Assembly: GCA_018304425.1 (NCBI GenBank)
Contig: JAGVWE010000002.1
Coordinates: 224,001-288,000 of the forward strand
DNA: 64,000 nt
Direction: 5' to 3'
From: Candidatus Iainarchaeum sp.
GTDB lineage: Archaea; Iainarchaeota; Iainarchaeia; Iainarchaeales; UBA10219
Both the position numbers and the translations under genes were made by a program. Below, piece by piece: positions 39,730 through 46,302 of this stretch (its first letter is position 1; each line of letters starts with the position of its first letter). A model generated the notes under the pieces. The model was not told where the DNA came from, did no database searches, and worked only from the letters and a program-made list of their open reading frames with translations.

Positions 39730-40262
39730 GCGACGTGAAACGCATGTTCGTCGCCGTCAACCTGCCGGCGGAAATCAAGAAAGGCATTCACGAAAAACTG
39801 GTGCAGGCCATCCCGGCCGGCAAGGCCAGGCCAGTGGAAACGGAGAACCTGCATGTGACGCTCAAGTTCCTTGGCTATTTGCACCCCGAGAAACTGGCCG
39901 AAGTCAGGGAAAAGCTGCAGGCGCTGGCGGCCGTGAAAAAGTTCGAAGTCGGACTCGCGGGCATTGGGGAGTTCGGGGGCCGCGTGGTCTGGCTGGGCGT
40001 CTCCAAGGGAGGCGAGGAAATGAAGGCCTTGAGCGACAAACTCGACGAACTCCTGCAGGTGAAGGACGACCGCTTCCACGCCCACGTTACCCTGGCGCGC
40101 AACAAGGAACTGAAGGCACCGGAAGTCAGGGAACTGCTGGCAGCCCTCGAAAAAGAGGGTTGCAGCTGGTCGTTCAAGGCCGAAAGCGTGGACGTCATGG
40201 AATCCGTGCTGTCGGCCAAGGGCCCGAAGTACGCGCTGCAGTTCCGGCAACCGCTTGAATGA
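39726..40262 (+). CDS. thpR: RNA 2',3'-cyclic phosphodiesterase (2H family)
   Basis: RMFVAV and two HxT motifs (HVTLKFLG, HVTLAR). Confidence 0.92.
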   Translation: MSDVKRMFVAVNLPAEIKKGIHEKLVQAIPAGKARPVETENLHVTLKFLGYLHPEKLAEVREKLQALAAVKKFEVGLAGIGEFGGRVVWLGVSKGGEEMKALSDKLDELLQVKDDRFHAHVTLARNKELKAPEVRELLAALEKEGCSWSFKAESVDVMESVLSAKGPKYALQFRQPLE

Positions 40263-40274
40263 GAAACGTTTATA

Positions 40275-40298
40275 TATGTGATATCACATAGTTATGTG
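40275..40298. promoter_or_regulatory. Antitoxin operator candidate
   Basis: Perfect palindrome TATGTGATATCACATA (40275-40290) plus a third TATGTG half-site, overlapping the TTTATATA box. Confidence 0.6.
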
Positions 40299-40309
40299 GG
40301 TGATAGCTT

Positions 40310-40531
40310 TTGAGTAACATCACGTTATCGGTTCCAAACGAAATCCACAAGGAAATGAAGCAGTACTCTGAAGTCCGCTGGAGCGAGGTGGCCCGGAAGG
40401 CCATTACAGAAAAGCTGGACGCGCTGCGACTGGCCGACAGGCTCGCCAAAAAAAGCAAGTTGTCCCAGGAAGACGTCGAGGAGTTCAGCAGGAAAATAAA
40501 GGCATTGGCAACCAAGAGGCTCAGGGAATGA
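40310..40531 (+). CDS. RHH-type antitoxin (VapB-like)
   Basis: NITLSVP...WSEVARKAI; overlaps the PIN gene (ATGA). Confidence 0.8.
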   Translation: MSNITLSVPNEIHKEMKQYSEVRWSEVARKAITEKLDALRLADRLAKKSKLSQEDVEEFSRKIKALATKRLRE

Positions 40532-40944
40532 ACATTGTCATCGACTCGAATGTTCTCTTCGCCGCCCTTATAAAGGATTCAACCACGCGCAGGCTCATCC
40601 TTGAATTTGACGGCTTCTTCCTCTTCCCCTCCTATATCTTCGACGAAATGGAGAAACACAGAAGCGAGCTCCTGCAAAAGTCCGGGATGACGGCAAAAGA
40701 GTTCGAAACGCTCCTCCAACTCATACTCGCTAAAGTCCTCATCGTGCCAGCCGAGGCGTTCAAGCCCCACGCCAAGGAAGCCCTTAAAATAGTTGGCTCC
40801 ATCGACCCTGACGATTCCGCCTTCTTTGCCTGCGCGCTGGCCTATCCGGGCAGCGTCATTTGGTCGGACGACAAGCGATTGAAAAAGCAGTCCAAAATAG
40901 GTGTCCTCCACACAGTCGAAATTGTCGACCTAATGAGGCGCTGA
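40528..40944 (+). CDS. PIN domain toxin (VapC-like)
   Basis: VIDSNVL, DPDD and IWSDDK acidic PIN motifs. Confidence 0.9.
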   Translation: MNIVIDSNVLFAALIKDSTTRRLILEFDGFFLFPSYIFDEMEKHRSELLQKSGMTAKEFETLLQLILAKVLIVPAEAFKPHAKEALKIVGSIDPDDSAFFACALAYPGSVIWSDDKRLKKQSKIGVLHTVEIVDLMRR

Positions 40945-40980
40945 AGCAGGTTAAATTAATATTTGGCAAAGACCTAGGTT

Positions 40981-42369
40981 ATGGCTATGAACCTGGCCAC
41001 GCTCAAGAAAGCCGTGCTCAAGAAAGTCAAGCCCTCGGCCGAGGAAGTCGCGGCCGAGCGGAGGATGGCCCATGCCTTGATGGAGGAAATCCGCGGACTA
41101 GAGGGCTCGCACGTGGAAGTCATGCTCTGTGGTTCCCTGGCCCGGGAGACCCACCTCAAGGGAGACCGGGACTTGGACCTCTTCGTGTTGTTCCCGGAAA
41201 GCGTGCCCCGCGAGCGTTTCGTGGAAGAAGGGCTGCGCATCGGGAAAACGATTTTCAGGGGGCATCCGTGGGAGGAAGCCTACTCCGAGCACCCCTACAT
41301 CCGGGGGGAAATCCGGGGCTTCGAAGTCGAGGTCGTGCCCGGCTACAAGGTGAAGAGCGCCGAAAAAATCCAGTCAGCCGTGGATAGAAGCCCCTTCCAC
41401 CAGCGATACCTGGAGAAGCGGTTGACGGGCAGGCTGCGGGACGAGGTGCGGCTGGTGCGGCAGTTCCTCAAAGGCATCAAATGCTATGGCGCGGAATTGA
41501 GGTATGCCAGCGTGCCAGGCTATGTCACGGAACTGCTCGTGCTCAAATACGGGTCGTTCGAGGCCACGGTAAAGGCGATGGCTGCCTGGAGGAAAGGCGA
41601 AGTCATTGACCTCGAAAACCACCGCCCCGCCGAAGACGCGCGGAAAAAGTTCGACGCGCCCTTCATCGTGGTCGACCCCGTGGACCGGGAGCGGAATGTC
41701 GCGGCCGCGCTCTCGCTCAACCAGTTCACGCGCATGATTGCCGCGGCGCGCGCGTTCACGCAGAAGCCGCGGTTGAGCTTCTTCTTTGGGAAGAAGGAAA
41801 AAACCTGGCCGCTCGCGAAAGTCAAGGCCATGCTCCAGAAAACCGAGCTGGCCGGGGTGGAGACCGGCTACCCGAAGGCGGTTTCAGATGTGGTGTGGGG
41901 CCAGTTGCGCAGGTTCGGGAAGAAGCTGGCGAACGAGCTGGGCGAGCTGGACTTCAAGGTTTTACGGCATGACGAGTGGACGGACGAGAAGAAACGCATG
42001 TGCTGTTTGTATGAGCTGGAAGCCGCCACCCTGCAAAAGGCGATGACCCGCACCGGGCCGCCTGTCACCGACCAGGCCAACAGCGCGGCCTTCCTGGCGA
42101 AGCACCAGAAACCCTTGTCCGGGCCCCGCATCGAGGAGGGCAGATGGGTGGTCGAGGTCGAGCGGAAGCACACGCAGGCGAAGACGGCGCTAAAGGAACT
42201 GCTGCAAAAGACCAAGGCGAGCGAGCGGGAGGGCCTGCGGCAGGCGCTGGCGAAGAAGACCCGCGTGCTGGATGAGAAAGCGCTTGTTGAATGGTATACA
42301 AAGGATAAGGAATTCGCCGAGTTCCTGACGGAATTCCTCAAAGGCGAAGAAGACTTTTTGGATTATTGA
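40981..42369 (+). CDS. cca: Archaeal (class I) CCA-adding enzyme
   Basis: GSLARETHLKGDRDLDLF, EHPY, VDRSPFH and DPVD...RNVAAA. Confidence 0.95.
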   Translation: MAMNLATLKKAVLKKVKPSAEEVAAERRMAHALMEEIRGLEGSHVEVMLCGSLARETHLKGDRDLDLFVLFPESVPRERFVEEGLRIGKTIFRGHPWEEAYSEHPYIRGEIRGFEVEVVPGYKVKSAEKIQSAVDRSPFHQRYLEKRLTGRLRDEVRLVRQFLKGIKCYGAELRYASVPGYVTELLVLKYGSFEATVKAMAAWRKGEVIDLENHRPAEDARKKFDAPFIVVDPVDRERNVAAALSLNQFTRMIAAARAFTQKPRLSFFFGKKEKTWPLAKVKAMLQKTELAGVETGYPKAVSDVVWGQLRRFGKKLANELGELDFKVLRHDEWTDEKKRMCCLYELEAATLQKAMTRTGPPVTDQANSAAFLAKHQKPLSGPRIEEGRWVVEVERKHTQAKTALKELLQKTKASEREGLRQALAKKTRVLDEKALVEWYTKDKEFAEFLTEFLKGEEDFLDY

Positions 42370-42376
42370 GGAGAAG

Positions 42377-42451
42377 CGGGCCCGGAGGGATTTGAACCCC
42401 CGTCCTCTCGGTCCGAAGCCGAGCGCCATATCCTGACTAGACCACGGGCCC
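42377..42451 (-). tRNA. tRNA-Arg (anticodon TCG), no intron, CCA not encoded
   Basis: GGGCCCGTGGTCTAGTCAGGATATGGCGCTCGGCTTCGGACCGAGAGGACGGGGGTTCAAATCCCTCCGGGCCCG forms a full cloverleaf with A20 and a TTCAAAT T-loop. Confidence 0.95.
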
Positions 42452-43200
42452 TAATATAATGACTCCACGTCCAAAGCCTTATCTAGGATTTGTTTACGCT
42501 GCGCATAGGTCGTATAAGGCGGACAGTGCCCATATTCGCTCCAAATGAGGAATCTACTCAGTTTAGAGGGGTTGGCAAATCCGATGTCTTTAATCCAGTG
42601 CAGTAGGTTCTCAGTCCCAGACATGAGAATACGGTGGTCGGCACCCCAATTTGTGTTTCGGCGTGGAAAAATGTATGCCTGATAGTTAAAGTTCAAAGCA
42701 CTAAGTAATTTTTGAACTCCCTCAAATAGTGGCTTGGAGATAACACTTAGGCCGAGAACGGGATAGCAGTTGTGAGTTTTCCTATATTCCGAATAGCTTT
42801 CTCCTTTTTGACGTTTGAAATGAATGAAACCGTCTGTGTCAAATAACCCCCGCAAAAAACGTTTATAGAATTCTGGGTCGTGCGAATCGAAAATGAACTT
42901 AGGAATCTCGACTATTGCTGATTTGGCGCCAAAAGGGAATCCAAGCGAATGCATGAATGAACATATTTTCTTTCCGCAAATTGAGCATCCGTACGTATTC
43001 CTGGAAGGAAAATACTTAGCGCGGATTTCTTTTTCGAAGACTCGCTGAAACAGGAGGACAATGTGTTCATCGTAATAGGGTCTTTCTTCCACGTGTCCGC
43101 TAATGTCGAGTTCGTAATGGCCGCCACGTCCACGCATATACCCATCCCCCGCATGGATGCCGCAGATTTCGGCCAAGTCCGCGCTCAACTCGAAGCCCAT
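42451..43200 (-). mobile_element. Free-standing two-motif LAGLIDADG homing endonuclease gene
   Basis: LAEICGIHAGDG and FLRGLFDTDG motifs; visibly more AT-rich than its neighbours; no intein splice motifs. Start is 43200 (about 25 nt after TTTAAG) or 43272. Confidence 0.88.
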
Positions 43201-43251
43201 GGAATTATCTGCGTTTGACCCGTTCTTAAAGGCCGGTCGAACGGGTGATTT

Positions 43252-43515
43252 CCGGTGCGAAAGAGGAGTCATAAGGACCCCTCCTTCTTCGTGCAGAGCA
43301 GGTCTGCGAAAGACAAGCCGTCCGAAAAGGGGTTTCCACGGTTGGAGACCTTTGACTCAACGTGATAAAGGTTCAAGCGAACCACCTCCGAAGACGGCTT
43401 GCGGCTTTTGGAGGCATTAAACCCTTTCCACCAACAGGCCGCGTTCGGAGGTGGAAAGGTTTAAGCCGAGAAAAGCCGAGTCGAAGGAGGTAGTGAGCGA
43501 CCTTTATCGCCAGGA
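43252..43515. ncRNA. Unidentified large structured RNA candidate
   Basis: Nested helices: 43257-66/43501-10, 43280-87/43483-90, 43314-22/43393-401, 43331-38/43343-50, 43370-74/43379-83, 43402-09/43471-78, 43417-32/43450-64. Confidence 0.5.
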
Positions 43516-43547
43516 GACCAAAATAGTTAAAGGTTTGGGGCTCCGGC

Positions 43548-44018
43548 TCACGGAGGAGTCAATCGGGCCAGGGCAACCTTGGCAGCCACTGCCACCTGCG
43601 GGTGCTCAGAATTAGATGCCCGGTCGAGAATCTGACGCATGCGGGCAAGAATACTTTCCTCAGCAGGTTTGCCCAACTGCGCCAACCCCCAGGCGGCTGT
43701 GAACTGGACCGGCAGATGGCCGTTACTCAACCCCTCGATCAACTGTTCACGACCCGCAGCGTTACCGAAATGGGCGAGGACGGCAGCAAGATGCACGCGC
43801 CTAGCAGGATCCCTTACATAACGTTTGCGTTGCAAGGCATCAAAAACTAGTTTCTCGGCCCTTTCACGACCAGCTGCGATCAAGGCAGCTGTCGCAGTTG
43901 CCCTCGTTGCTGGACTCAATTGCCCCAAATTATGGATTTCCGACATTAGTGGATGGCTCTCGTGGGGCCAAGGGGGAGCAGCGGCACCGGGTCTAGCAGG
44001 CCTGCGTTCGGGCGACAT
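43548..44018 (-). CDS. HEAT/PBS-lyase-repeat orphan protein
   Basis: Repeats RVHLAAVLAHFG, VQFTAAWGLAQLG and VAVAAKVALARL. Confidence 0.65.
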   Translation of the reverse strand: MSPERRPARPGAAAPPWPHESHPLMSEIHNLGQLSPATRATATAALIAAGRERAEKLVFDALQRKRYVRDPARRVHLAAVLAHFGNAAGREQLIEGLSNGHLPVQFTAAWGLAQLGKPAEESILARMRQILDRASNSEHPQVAVAAKVALARLTPP

Positions 44019-44060
44019 ATACTATCTGGAGTGGACGTGGAATAAATAGGTTTGCCCGGC

Positions 44061-45248
44061 TTATAAAACCTTGAGCCGCTTCCCGACCTTTTCGAAGACG
44101 GCCAGGGCTTGGTTCAAGTCCTTCTGCGTGAAGGCCGCGTTCATCTGCGTCCGGATGCGTGCCTTGTCCTTGGCCACCATGGGGAAAACGATGGGAACCC
44201 CGAAGACGCCTTCCTTGAACAACTCGCGCGAGAACTCCTGCGCGCGGTTGCTGTCGCCCAACATCACGGGAATAATTGGTGTTTGGCTCTTGCCCGTGTC
44301 AAAGCCCAGTTGCTGGAGGCCCTTGCGAAAGAACTCGGTGTTCTTCCAGAGCCGGGGCACGATTTTCTTGTCCCTCTCAAGGACTTGCAAGGCAGCCGTG
44401 CAGGCCGCGACCGTGGCAGGGGGCGCGGAACCACTCAACAGCCAGCTGCGCGACTTGTTGTACGCGTACTCGCAGACCGCTTGAGAGCCACAAGCATAGC
44501 CGCCCATGACGCCAAAGGCCTTGGAGAAGGTGCCGACTTCGACGTCGATTTTGCCGGTCAAGCCAAAGTGATGGGTTACGCCGCGGCCCTGCGGGCCGAG
44601 GACTCCGTCGCCATGCGCGTCATCCACATAGGTAATGCAATTGAATTGCTCCGCGAGCTTCACGATGCCGGGCAAGGGCGCGATGTCGCCATCCATGGAG
44701 AAAACCCCGTCCGTGACTATGAACGTGCGCTTGAAGTTCTTGGACGCGTTCTCCTTCAGGACGCGTTCCAGGTCGGCCACGTCATTGTGCTGGTAAACGG
44801 CTTTCTCGGCCTTTGACAAGCGGATGCCATCGATGATGCTGCCATGGTTGAGCTGGTCGCTGATGACCAAATCCCCTTCGGCGAGGATGGCCGGGAGCAG
44901 GCCCGCGTTGGCGGCGAACCCGGTCTGGAAGTAAATGGCTGAATTCGTGTGCTTGAATTTCGCGATTTGCCGGTCGAGCTTGATGTGCAAGTCCATGGTG
45001 CCCGCAATGGCGGGAACCGAACCCGAGCCCGCCCCATATTTCTTCACGGCTGCTACCGCGGCTGCCTTGACCTTGGGGTGGTTGCTCAAGCCCAAGTAAT
45101 TGTTGGCTGCCAAGAGGAGGACCTGCTTGCCGTCCACCCGGGCGCGGGGCTGGGAAGGGCCCTGGAGCTGCCTACGCGTCCAATAGAGGCCGGAAGCCTT
45201 CAAATCAGCCACTTGCTGGGCCAAAAAGCCTTCGAATGCCGCGTTCAT
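44061..45248 (-). CDS. kbl: Glycine C-acetyltransferase (2-amino-3-ketobutyrate CoA ligase)
   Basis: ANNYLGL, LNHGSIIDG, DGVFSMDG, DDAHG and GTFSKA; adjacent to tdh. Confidence 0.88.
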   Translation of the reverse strand: MNAAFEGFLAQQVADLKASGLYWTRRQLQGPSQPRARVDGKQVLLLAANNYLGLSNHPKVKAAAVAAVKKYGAGSGSVPAIAGTMDLHIKLDRQIAKFKHTNSAIYFQTGFAANAGLLPAILAEGDLVISDQLNHGSIIDGIRLSKAEKAVYQHNDVADLERVLKENASKNFKRTFIVTDGVFSMDGDIAPLPGIVKLAEQFNCITYVDDAHGDGVLGPQGRGVTHHFGLTGKIDVEVGTFSKAFGVMGGYACGSQAVCEYAYNKSRSWLLSGSAPPATVAACTAALQVLERDKKIVPRLWKNTEFFRKGLQQLGFDTGKSQTPIIPVMLGDSNRAQEFSRELFKEGVFGVPIVFPMVAKDKARIRTQMNAAFTQKDLNQALAVFEKVGKRLKVL

Positions 45249-45264
45249 CGAACCCCTCCCGGTC

Positions 45265-46302
45265 TCACTTGCCGTCCACGTGCATGATGATTTTGCCGGA
45301 GTTGCCGGAATTCATCAAGTCAAAGCCCTTCCGCCAGTCGCTGAACTGGATGCGGTGGGTGATGATGTTGGAAACATCGAGTGCCCCTCCCTTGATGAGG
45401 CCCGCCATCTTGTACCAGGTCTCGTACATGCGTCTCCCGGTGATGCCCAAAACCGTTGCCCCCTTGAAGATGATGTCGTTGGGCAGGTCCAGGGCAACCG
45501 GCTCCGAGGGCAAGCCGAACAAGGAGATTCTGCCAGCATCCCGCAGGGCCTTGAAAGCGGATTTGACGGCCGACGGGTTGCCGGAGTTTTCCAACACGAC
45601 TTCGGCGCCCAAGCCATTGGTCTGGTCCTTGATTTCCTTGGCCACGTCGGTTTCCTTTGGGTTGAAGACGTGCTTGGCCCCGATTTTCTTGGCGAGCTTC
45701 AAGCGGTAATCGGAGACGTCGCTGGCAAAGATTTCGGCGGCGCCGGCGGCTTTCGCGACTGCGATGGCCATCAAGCCTGCGGGCCCGCAGCCGAACACGG
45801 CCACGGTTTTCCCCGCGACCTCGGTTTGGAGGGTGGTGTGCACCGCGTTGCCGAGGGGCTCCATGATGCAACCGGCTTCCCAGGAAATGTGTTTGCCGTG
45901 CTTCCAGACGCAGATGTCCGGGACGCTCACGTATTCGGCGAAGCCCCCGTTGGTGTCAACGCCCAAGATTTTCACGTTGCTGCAGACGTGCGCGTTGCCG
46001 GTGCGGCATTGGTAGCAGGCCTTGCAGATGATGTGGCTTTCCGCGGAGACGTGGTCGCCTTCCCGGATGTAAACGACTTCTTCGCCGACTTTCTCGACCA
46101 CGCCCGTGAACTCGTGGCCCATGATGAGGGGTGGCTTGATACGGTTCTGGCTCCACTTGTCCCAGTTGAAGATGTGCAGGTCGGTGCCGCAAATCGAGGC
46201 ATACTTGACTTTGATGAGGACGTCTCTCGGCCCCACGGCCGGCATGTCCACCCGACGCAGGTCGAAGCCGGGAGAGGCATTGGGTTTGACGATTGCTTGC
46301 AT
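45265..46302 (-). CDS. tdh: L-threonine 3-dehydrogenase
   Basis: ICGTDLHI, GHEF, Zn Cys cluster, EPLGNAVHT and GITGRRMYETW. Confidence 0.92.
   Translation of the reverse strand: MQAIVKPNASPGFDLRRVDMPAVGPRDVLIKVKYASICGTDLHIFNWDKWSQNRIKPPLIMGHEFTGVVEKVGEEVVYIREGDHVSAESHIICKACYQCRTGNAHVCSNVKILGVDTNGGFAEYVSVPDICVWKHGKHISWEAGCIMEPLGNAVHTTLQTEVAGKTVAVFGCGPAGLMAIAVAKAAGAAEIFASDVSDYRLKLAKKIGAKHVFNPKETDVAKEIKDQTNGLGAEVVLENSGNPSAVKSAFKALRDAGRISLFGLPSEPVALDLPNDIIFKGATVLGITGRRMYETWYKMAGLIKGGALDVSNIITHRIQFSDWRKGFDLMNSGNSGKIIMHVDGK

Follow-up and report, generated by a model that had tools for sequence, protein, structure and literature searches.

Why should the gene for a homing endonuclease end exactly on the first base of a tRNA gene? 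The question is raised by a stretch of 64,000 nucleotides (nt) from Candidatus Iainarchaeum sp. (assembly GCA_018304425.1, contig JAGVWE010000002.1, positions 224,001 to 288,000), referred to below as the window, in which the stop codon of a LAGLIDADG open reading frame (ORF) overlaps the 5' end of the gene for tRNA-Arg(UCG) (Table 1). We consider it likely, with a probability of roughly 0.72, that this ORF belongs to a free-standing, two-motif LAGLIDADG homing cassette which lies flush against the 5' end of this single-copy tRNA gene. The reading is carried by the anatomy of the locus, its recurrence in other archaea, the match between endonuclease clade and target, the occurrence of filled and empty alleles, and the foreign base composition of the ORF.

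Read on the minus strand, the junction is GAG TCA TTA TAT TAG followed directly by GGCCCG, and the tRNA side continues as GGCCCGTGG. An earlier interpretation of this DNA, made from its letters only (the sequence-only reading), had placed the end of the stop codon on tRNA base G1 (42451), and the sequence, ARAGORN, and Rfam agree on this. The Rfam tRNA model (59.6 bits, E-value 2e-11) starts at the same base as the ARAGORN call. Both programs find the tRNA whole on the downstream side of the ORF, with the 7-bp acceptor stem and every arm uninterrupted, and the whole-genome ARAGORN list contains no other tRNA with a TCG anticodon. The longest possible frame (42451..43272, minus strand, 273 amino acids) starts at ATG 43272; because the alignments with relatives begin only at about residue 24–30 of this frame, ATG 43200 is the likely start. 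On the other side of the tRNA, a mere 6 nt separate its 3' end from the end of the convergent CCA-adding enzyme gene, a host flank which fixes the right-hand boundary.

Table 1. Features at the junction between the endonuclease ORF and tRNA-Arg and in its neighbourhood, in window coordinates.
Feature	Position	Strand	Basis or remark
Stop codon TAG, its G being tRNA position 1	42451..42453	-	Sequence, ARAGORN, Rfam
tRNA-Arg(TCG), complete, intron-free	42376..42451	-	ARAGORN; Rfam RF00005
LAGLIDADG homing-endonuclease ORF (predicted), 249 amino acids, probable start ATG 43200	42451..43200	-	Pfam, alignments with relatives, structure model
First LAGLIDADG motif LAEICGIHAGDG with conserved acidic residue	43141..43176	-	Alignments
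Second LAGLIDADG motif FLRGLFDTDG	42829..42858	-	Alignments
Weak TATA-like TAGATAAG inside the ORF	42478..42485	-	-34..-27 of tRNA G1; ILDK codons
TTTAAG, predicted TATA box of the endonuclease gene	43225..43230	-	-30..-25 of ATG 43200; positional A/T peak in relatives
Conserved upstream motif TTCGCACCGGAAA, core CACYGGMMA	43249..43261	-	13–17 nt upstream of the TATA box
Position of the small ORF	43273..43376	-	34-codon TTG frame; no likeness to the relatives' small ORF visible by eye
Conserved long hairpin, about 110 nt	43382..43493	-	Alignment; RNAalifold
Convergent class-I CCA-adding enzyme gene	40981..42369	+	Pfam

The endonuclease gene is free-standing, being neither an intron nor an intein, and in this respect the sequence-only reading of a selfish element was correct: the tRNA is complete and uninterrupted according to two programs, and the ORF starts with an ATG of its own and is not flanked by extein-like sequence. 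An Rfam scan of positions 40000–46000 with E-values up to 1 returned tRNAs only and no intron family. Nor is the ORF inserted between exon halves, as a bulge-helix-bulge intron would be; no formal fold search was made across the cassette. A search for partial tRNA copies and terminal repeats around the ORF in the window gave short matches only, none longer than expected by chance. An integrated virus or plasmid that uses the tRNA as attachment site was considered and rejected, the extra DNA amounting to about 1 kb with host-gene flanks of normal GC content and no integrase. Because the cassette ends 2 nt before G1, outside the mature tRNA, no splicing is needed, as had also been proposed.

The arrangement recurs. 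Among 60 further genomes of the same order and the window's own, 47 of 61 encode relatives (intein copies counted). The gene for tRNA-Arg(TCG) is the immediate downstream neighbour of the six closest homologues (40–46% identity) and of one truncated remnant. One of them (locus L003) has a stop TAG which shares its G with tRNA G1 as in the window, the frame of another (L006) extends 15 nt into the tRNA, and the truncated remnant (L017) reads through it. L004, L005, and L007 have a tail that is 33 amino acids longer, followed by a spacer of 26–36 nt before the tRNA. More distant paralogues within the order adjoin Leu-GAG, Arg-GCG, Lys or His tRNAs, or the 3' ends of convergent tRNAs.

A wider survey covered one genome per prokaryote species and yielded at least 599 candidate stretches, at least 488 of which encode a relative; the best 80 were kept, 5 of them duplicating loci of the same-order relatives. 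By record title, their hosts are Woese-, Pace-, Nano-, Iain-, Micr-, and Aenigmarchaeota together with a few probably mislabelled bins. Adjacency, defined as a same-strand tRNA whose first base is within -110..+80 nt of the ORF stop, is found in 56 of the 80 loci when the tRNA scan tolerates introns. With ARAGORN, 53 of 74 tRNAs fall into the 191-nt windows at the ORF stops, which make up about 4% of the 405,843 bases. Inspection by eye added nine loci with multi-intron tRNAs that both programs had missed; the remaining loci include one thiolase case and two that are ended by contig ends. The family is large, with 1550 cluster representatives at E-values up to 0.001.

The last base of the stop is shared with G1 in 4 of the 80 loci by program and in one more (L064) by eye, so that the recurrence for which the sequence-only reading had asked is found. 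Exact abutment and adjacency exceed chance. In a genome with tight gene spacing (1.48 Mb in 7 contigs, 58% GC, about 93% complete), where the CCA-enzyme gene nearly touches the tRNA as well, an unrelated ORF could come to lie next to a tRNA by accident; given the recurrence, the enrichment at ORF stops and the match between clade and target described below, we regard a chance juxtaposition as practically negligible.

In seven of the surveyed loci (L064, L086, L087, L091, L093, L098, and L127), the tRNA beside the endonuclease often has at least two introns, located in the D-loop, the anticodon loop, and the T-loop. ARAGORN misses such multi-intron tRNAs or miscalls their anticodon (SeC-tca instead of Arg-tcg).

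A maximum-likelihood tree was computed from 88 proteins, 12 rows with stops or short matches having been dropped beforehand. All 37 rows labelled Arg-TCG fall within a single clade of 50 rows with a support of 95 (Shimodaira-Hasegawa-like approximate likelihood ratio test), the other rows of which are ARAGORN misses or probable mislabels. Leu-CAA, Leu-GAG, Arg-GCG, Arg-ACG, a class-II tRNA group, and a thiolase pair each form groups of their own. The tRNA labels require 28 changes on the tree compared to 44.8 for shuffled labels, and none of 200 shuffles was as low, a test which is inflated by kinship. Judged from this tree, the endonuclease clades track tRNA identity, each adjoining one specific tRNA gene at its 5' end. 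A few clades lie at a thiolase start codon instead.

At the thiolase loci (L010 in G008:C5, L019 in G051:C3, and L103), the endonuclease ORF overlaps the start codon in the form ATGcgTAG, TAATG or GTGcgTAG, and the conserved ...LDP..FY tail is found a few codons earlier.

The encoded protein is predicted to be a monomeric two-motif LAGLIDADG homing endonuclease. Pfam LAGLIDADG_3 (PF14528) matches with an E-value of 1.3e-8 (35.4 bits, cut-off 22.5), the match being limited to the second half (residues 134–231 of the long frame). In an alignment of 9 sequences, A10, E11, G14, G18, D19, and G20 of motif 1 and F115, R117, G118, F120, D121, T122, D123, and G124 of motif 2 are invariant. Among 61 sequences, G14, D19, and G20 of motif 1 and G118 and D121 of motif 2 are invariant, and D123 is kept in at least 90%. 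An AlphaFold2 model based on the 61-row alignment has a predicted local distance difference test score (pLDDT) of 97.3 and displays the two-fold pseudo-symmetric alpha-beta-beta-alpha-beta-beta-alpha arrangement. Among solved structures, Foldseek ranks I-Tsp061I first (E-value 4.8e-11, template modelling (TM) score to target 0.79) together with I-DmoI (TM score to target 0.66–0.74), followed by intein endonuclease domains and, at lower rank, by WhiA and the bI3 maturase. A profile search of PDB sequences likewise matched intein and intron endonucleases. The core is followed by a conserved helical tail of about 35 residues (...GFCPP.TT..QRK.IL....LDP..FY).

The genome contains only one other LAGLIDADG match (locus L002, G000:C3:121963-122319, minus strand, E-value 5.4e-4). 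It lies within a frame of 1304 amino acids and is probably an intein endonuclease domain.

The ORF is AT-rich, as the sequence-only reading had stated. Counted from ATG 43200, it has a GC content of 0.451, which is 4.5 standard deviations below that of the genome's ORFs of at least 200 amino acids (mean 0.599, standard deviation 0.033), and only 8 of 1827 crude ORFs of that size have a GC content as low. In a sliding window, values of 0.40–0.45 across the ORF compare to about 0.6 in the flanks.

Endonuclease-free alleles had been predicted to exist in relatives, and they do. A search of the same 60 genomes with the tRNA-Arg(TCG) sequence gave 23 loci, of which 7 are filled and 15 empty, while 1 has no upstream sequence; 15 of the 22 assessable loci are thus empty, meaning that there is no endonuclease within the 674–1300 nt available upstream. 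Most filled and empty loci share their gene neighbourhood: EF-1beta and a small HVO_2753-type zinc-finger gene (divergent) upstream and the convergent CCA-enzyme gene downstream. The window has kept the CCA-enzyme flank and has a different upstream flank. Filled and empty alleles occur within single families: in f21, G041 is filled and G020 and G056 are empty; in f25, G043 is filled and G024 empty; in f24, G042 carries a remnant and G057 is empty. The empty alleles have a TATA-like box about 25–45 nt before G1. A scan of metagenomes with the CCA enzyme retrieved relatives of 50–57% identity; 13 of the 16 loci have the tRNA and 3 have an endonuclease, two of these copies being near-identical and one frameshifted. 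Decay is seen elsewhere as well (L017 truncated, L144 frameshifted, in-frame stops within the matched stretch in 8 of 100 survey loci). EF-1beta, the Zn-ribbon gene or the CCA enzyme was found by tblastn in only 12 of the 80 loci of the wider survey; therefore, this synteny belongs to the order of the window and not to all hosts.

According to ARAGORN, none of the 15 empty tRNA-Arg(TCG) alleles in the window's order (loci L023–L045) has an intron, compared to 5 of the 7 filled ones (L003–L007). The filled alleles with an intron-free tRNA are that of the window and L017, and in other DPANN lineages filled alleles are mixed in this respect.

These data also bear on the possibility that the protein has been domesticated, as a WhiA-like DNA-binding regulator or as a factor that targets the neighbouring tRNA gene or the RNA made from it, and has been inherited vertically from an ancestor of the order, with many losses. 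Both motifs retain their catalytic acids throughout, in contrast to the loss of these residues that marks WhiA-type proteins. Presence and absence inside single families, the truncated, frameshifted, and stop-containing copies, and the deviant GC content also speak against a host function, as does the occurrence of the family at other tRNAs, at the 3' ends of convergent tRNAs, and at the thiolase start codon. In its favour, the fold matches include WhiA in an RNA polymerase complex (rank 28, TM score to query 0.61), the helical tail beyond the core is conserved, identities of 40–48% between genomes fit an old divergence, and the distance between a conserved cis motif and the TATA box is fixed. 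We nevertheless consider it quite improbable.

The sequence-only reading, while recognizing a selfish element, had assigned it another mode of expression: the ORF would occupy the 5' leader of the tRNA and be driven by the tRNA promoter, and RNase P would trim the stop codon to UA, leaving a non-stop mRNA and hence little nuclease. A co-transcript is indeed to be expected, since the lack of terminator space between ORF and tRNA makes read-through into the tRNA unavoidable, and the genome encodes an RNase P RNA (107 bits). The promoter signals upstream of the ORF point in another direction. The TTTAAG that had been noticed ahead of ATG 43200 is placed as in the relatives, where all-A/T 7-mers upstream of the ATG peak at -30..-26 (96 counts vs. 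14–44 in other 5-nt bins). Such a 7-mer starts at -36..-25 in 41 of 55 loci, whatever the target, compared to 14–28 in control windows. No Shine-Dalgarno sequence follows TTTAAG in the window, and the endonuclease mRNA is probably leaderless.

TTTAAG lies downstream of a conserved motif with the core CACYGGMMA, which elsewhere takes the form CACTGGACA or CGCCGGCAT. Within -140..-20 of the match start there are 25 copies of the core in 23 of 95 non-duplicate loci, with about 0.5 expected from the pattern probability; elsewhere, 25 and 11 copies occur on the two strands of 446,623 bases. The motif travels with endonucleases to four kinds of tRNA gene (Arg, Leu, Thr, and Lys), and no copy of it turned up in those empty alleles that were examined. 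Because the A/T box near -30 recurs across targets and sits downstream of this travelling motif, we infer that TTTAAG is the cassette's own promoter and not that of the tRNA, which speaks against the proposed use of the tRNA promoter.

The unit CACTGGACA-N13-TATA is tandemly duplicated in L093 (positions ~2300-2440), L083, L086, L095, L111, L121, and L013. An origin of CACYGGMMA as the D-loop of a tRNA stub was considered and rejected: the motif is identical at different tRNA targets, it is repeated in tandem, along with its TATA box, in L093, and in L020 it is separate from the stub.

How, then, is the tRNA transcribed? It had been stated that there is no convincing TATA box right before the tRNA, and TAGATAAG, a poor match, is all that we found there. 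The sequence-only reading had conceded that a tRNA start site inside the ORF would count against it, and for the relatives this point goes against it, as most have a TATA-like box inside or just after the ORF; for the window it is less clear, its own box being degenerate. In relatives whose ORF abuts or enters the tRNA, an all-A/T 8-mer starts at -42..-26 of G1 in 23 of 32 loci, compared to 19, 8, 8, 11, 15, 9, and 4 in seven control windows inside the ORF. Where a spacer is present, the box is found in 18 of 21 loci (2–11 in controls), with an A/T fraction of 0.91 at -30..-26, overlapping the stop codon. In the abutting class it is typically ATTTTAAAGG, provided by the codons of the conserved I-L-K-G; the window's counterpart ATCCTAGATAAGG (I-L-D-K) is a degraded version. 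We infer that in the relatives this TATA-like box, whether it falls into the final ORF codons or into the short spacer, may serve as promoter of the tRNA. Since the internal box is degraded in the window, its tRNA-Arg may rely more strongly on read-through from the cassette and on trimming by RNase P.

Two types of repeated, structured tRNA leader are shared within the genome of the window. One, common to many tRNA genes, consists of a hairpin followed by ttttcgcaRRccttttgtaaaaaggcct directly before G1 and is found outside the window (G000), for example, upstream of the tRNAs at C1:75282, C1:289627, C1:292582, C3:227888, C4:80777, C4:155167, C5:170565, and C7:53910. The other (atatttatgtccc...gggacgacgtatgcggtg...) precedes class-II tRNAs and some others.

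The stop codons themselves complete the comparison with the tRNA-leader explanation. In the 56 adjacent loci, the last stop base is shared with G1 in 4, the stop lies within tRNA nt 2–26 in 20, and the frame runs deeper in 4; gaps of 0–9 nt are found in 5 loci, of 10–44 nt in 21, and of 45 nt or more in 2. Twenty-four of these stops thus consist partly or wholly of tRNA nucleotides, which cutting by RNase P would remove as the tRNA-leader explanation requires. An ordinary stop is kept in the 21 loci with spacers of 10–44 nt, and a truncated stop is not conserved. What is fixed in the family is the junction: a conserved final Tyr codon, 2 nt, and G1. If the two junction bases are TA, the frame stops on G1, as in the window, L003/L053, L089, L094, and L101. 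If they are not, the frame reads GGN NNN and stops at U8-A9-G10 (14 loci, offset -9), which reads TAG in most of the tRNAs concerned; in another register, the stop is at tRNA nt 13–15 (5 loci, offset -14). Because the outcome follows from this fixed junction, the overlap of stop and G1 is a by-product of the cassette's end point and not a conserved device. The tRNA-leader explanation could also invoke six relatives in which a displaced tRNA stub with a TATA box near -30 (see below) leaves the native tRNA promoter pointing into the cassette. Taken together, we consider it unlikely.

For the homing cassette, the course of events may be as follows. The enzyme would cleave a tRNA gene that lacks the cassette, either within its conserved 5' portion or close by, and the break would be mended with an occupied allele as template, whereby the cassette is copied in. 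The cassette would comprise its own promoter (the motif and TTTAAG) and the ORF of 249 amino acids as well as, in this lineage, a conserved upstream hairpin and a decayed small ORF. The ORF would continue to the first in-frame stop, provided here by TA and G1. The tRNA would be released from the read-through transcript by RNase P, or be transcribed from the TATA-like box in the last codons of the ORF, or both.

A part of the tRNA gene may even have been replaced in some relatives. In three tRNA-Arg loci (L077, L087, and L094) and one tRNA-Lys locus (L020), the first 12–16 nt of the tRNA are copied just upstream of the cassette's promoter unit, and these four stubs are preceded by a TATA box at about -30. 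Stubs of 22–23 nt were recognized by eye in L057 and L060. In a test for shared 12-mers, 5 of 61 loci were positive (one of them spurious, a chance match in a zinc-finger gene), whereas three control regions gave no positive among the 61. When tRNA nt 1–35 were aligned more generally to 370 nt around the ORF start, the mean score was 14.45, compared to 13.67 for the tRNA 3' end and 13.35 for shuffled sequence. All 20 shuffles were beaten in 4 of 51 loci (2 of 51 for the 3' control), and one of the four (L020) represents a neighbouring whole tRNA gene. The stubs are therefore not a general feature, and there is none in the window.

Where a stub is present, it would mean that the resident gene was broken in the D-arm and that today's first 12–23 tRNA nucleotides arrived with the cassette. 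From this, a bolder proposal can be framed, namely that the family is a self-complementing homing cassette for tRNA genes, of a kind not previously described. The enzyme would cut the tRNA gene in the D-arm region, and the incoming DNA would bring, besides the promoter unit and the ORF, a new copy of the first tRNA nucleotides (nt 1 to about 12–23). The tRNA gene would be rebuilt free of splicing, with the old 5' stub and the native promoter left upstream to decay. The cassette would obtain its stop from tRNA nucleotides (TA plus G1, U8-A9-G10 or nt 13–15) and would bring along the TATA box of the rebuilt tRNA within its C-terminal I-L-(N/K)-G codons; the copy in the window would be an old one that has lost its stub. 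The stop codons that overlap a tRNA, all of which lie within nt 1–22, are in line with this proposal, which we offer tentatively and with more doubt than conviction.

Between the cassette and a HEAT-repeat gene further upstream, the window contains a long hairpin that is conserved at four tRNA-Arg loci (L005 1120-1290, L007 1150-1335, L068 2105-2285, and L141 3985-4190) and one tRNA-Leu locus (L008 1030-1205). In these relatives it is followed by a Shine-Dalgarno sequence, a small ORF of 47–50 amino acids, and the endonuclease gene. RNAalifold predicts 36 pairs from six sequences, 13 of them with compensatory changes, and G-U pairs favour the endonuclease strand. The hairpin is not matched by Rfam, which reports tRNAs only (positions 40000–46000 of the window and five related loci). 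The relatives' small ORF has the signature ...DFP.P..EEI...R.IW.L... and no Pfam match; its counterpart in the window has probably decayed. Because it lies between the zinc-finger gene and the endonuclease in L007 and L068, the hairpin/small-ORF module looks inserted, and hairpin and small ORF are probably part of the same inserted module as the cassette.

Several points weigh against homing. Presence/absence polymorphism is found at a homologous site, yet no pair delimits both boundaries: no closely related filled/empty pair was found, the nearest CCA-enzyme relatives being 50–57% identical, and contigs from four sequencing runs over positions 40500–45500 contain the filled form only, with no joint that skips the ORF and no variant letters. 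One of these contigs spans 42374–43212, and the four runs may stem from the assembly's own campaign. Neither the relatives nor the contigs thus delimit the cassette on its left side. Between genomes, endonucleases that share a tRNA target are only 40–48% identical, and vertical descent with repeated loss would equally give a patchy distribution. The counts overstate independence, the genomes of one order being kin. An occupied allele keeps an intact tRNA, so that its escape from cutting is unexplained. The conserved upstream motif is a cis element without an assigned function, and the window's internal TATA-like box is poor, with two G/C in eight positions. Finally, endonuclease activity, target sites, and transcripts are at the level of prediction for all members of the family.

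The closest parallel in setting is SegB of phage T4, a free-standing GIY-YIG homing endonuclease encoded in the T4 tRNA gene cluster (PMC2330249). The site that SegB recognizes is reported to contain a conserved tRNA motif (the T-psi-C stem-loop), and its gene spreads together with flanking tRNA genes into relatives that lack it. The SegB gene resembles the window's element in being free-standing among tRNA genes and differs in its fold (GIY-YIG vs. LAGLIDADG) and its host (phage vs. archaeal chromosome); it is not reported to be fused to a tRNA 5' end or to share a stop codon with a tRNA. SegB activity and homing were established by experiment, whereas the element described here is known from sequence alone. 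The stubs at six loci can be compared with fungal mitochondrial endonuclease ORFs, which lie between a gene and a partial duplicate of its end (PMC6279837). In that study, the duplicates concern the C-terminal ends of the protein genes cob and atp6; here, they concern the first 12–23 nt of tRNAs and occur outside the window.

In fold, as two-motif monomers, and in having archaeal hosts, the enzymes most similar to the predicted protein are I-DmoI, I-Tsp061I, and intein endonucleases (PDB 2vs7, 2dch, 7qsu), which likewise have their targets in conserved RNA or protein genes. Those enzymes are encoded inside rRNA introns or inteins that are spliced out, whereas the window's ORF lies outside the mature product and has its own predicted promoter and no splicing element. 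LAGLIDADG genes have also proliferated in stable-RNA genes of other ultrasmall, genome-reduced, uncultured prokaryotes, those of the Candidate Phyla Radiation (CPR), and one of the CPR enzymes cleaves its own insertion site. The CPR insertions are reported to be located inside rRNA genes, to be mostly group-I-like, and to encode mostly single-domain homodimers. Unlike these, the family described here is found at the ends of tRNA genes, has two motifs, and showed no intron structure.

An ORF that abuts a tRNA is familiar from animal mitochondria, where tRNA processing sets the 3' end of the mRNA and leaves an incomplete stop codon, which is completed by polyadenylation. This tRNA punctuation serves host genes; in the window, the overlap appears to be a by-product of the junction of a mobile gene.

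No description of LAGLIDADG genes at the 5' ends of archaeal tRNA genes was found in searches of openly available full texts or in passages of a paper on archaeal group I introns. A widespread tRNA-associated LAGLIDADG family in DPANN archaea thus apparently is undescribed.

Homing endonucleases are assumed to survive by hiding in introns and inteins that splice themselves out or, when free-standing, mostly in phages. The cassette would represent a third route to harmlessness, which is to settle just outside a conserved stable-RNA gene and to hand a promoter to the tRNA. Such a family would yield natural meganucleases whose targets can be read from the neighbouring tRNA. It would also be a natural case of overlapping coding, in which the tail of a protein contains a TATA box and tRNA bases supply the stop codon. 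For genome annotation, the consequence is that ORFs run into tRNA genes and that many tRNAs with several introns escape ARAGORN. For archaeal biology, the finding bears on the long-standing idea that mobile elements shape the oddities of archaeal tRNA genes, such as introns and split genes.

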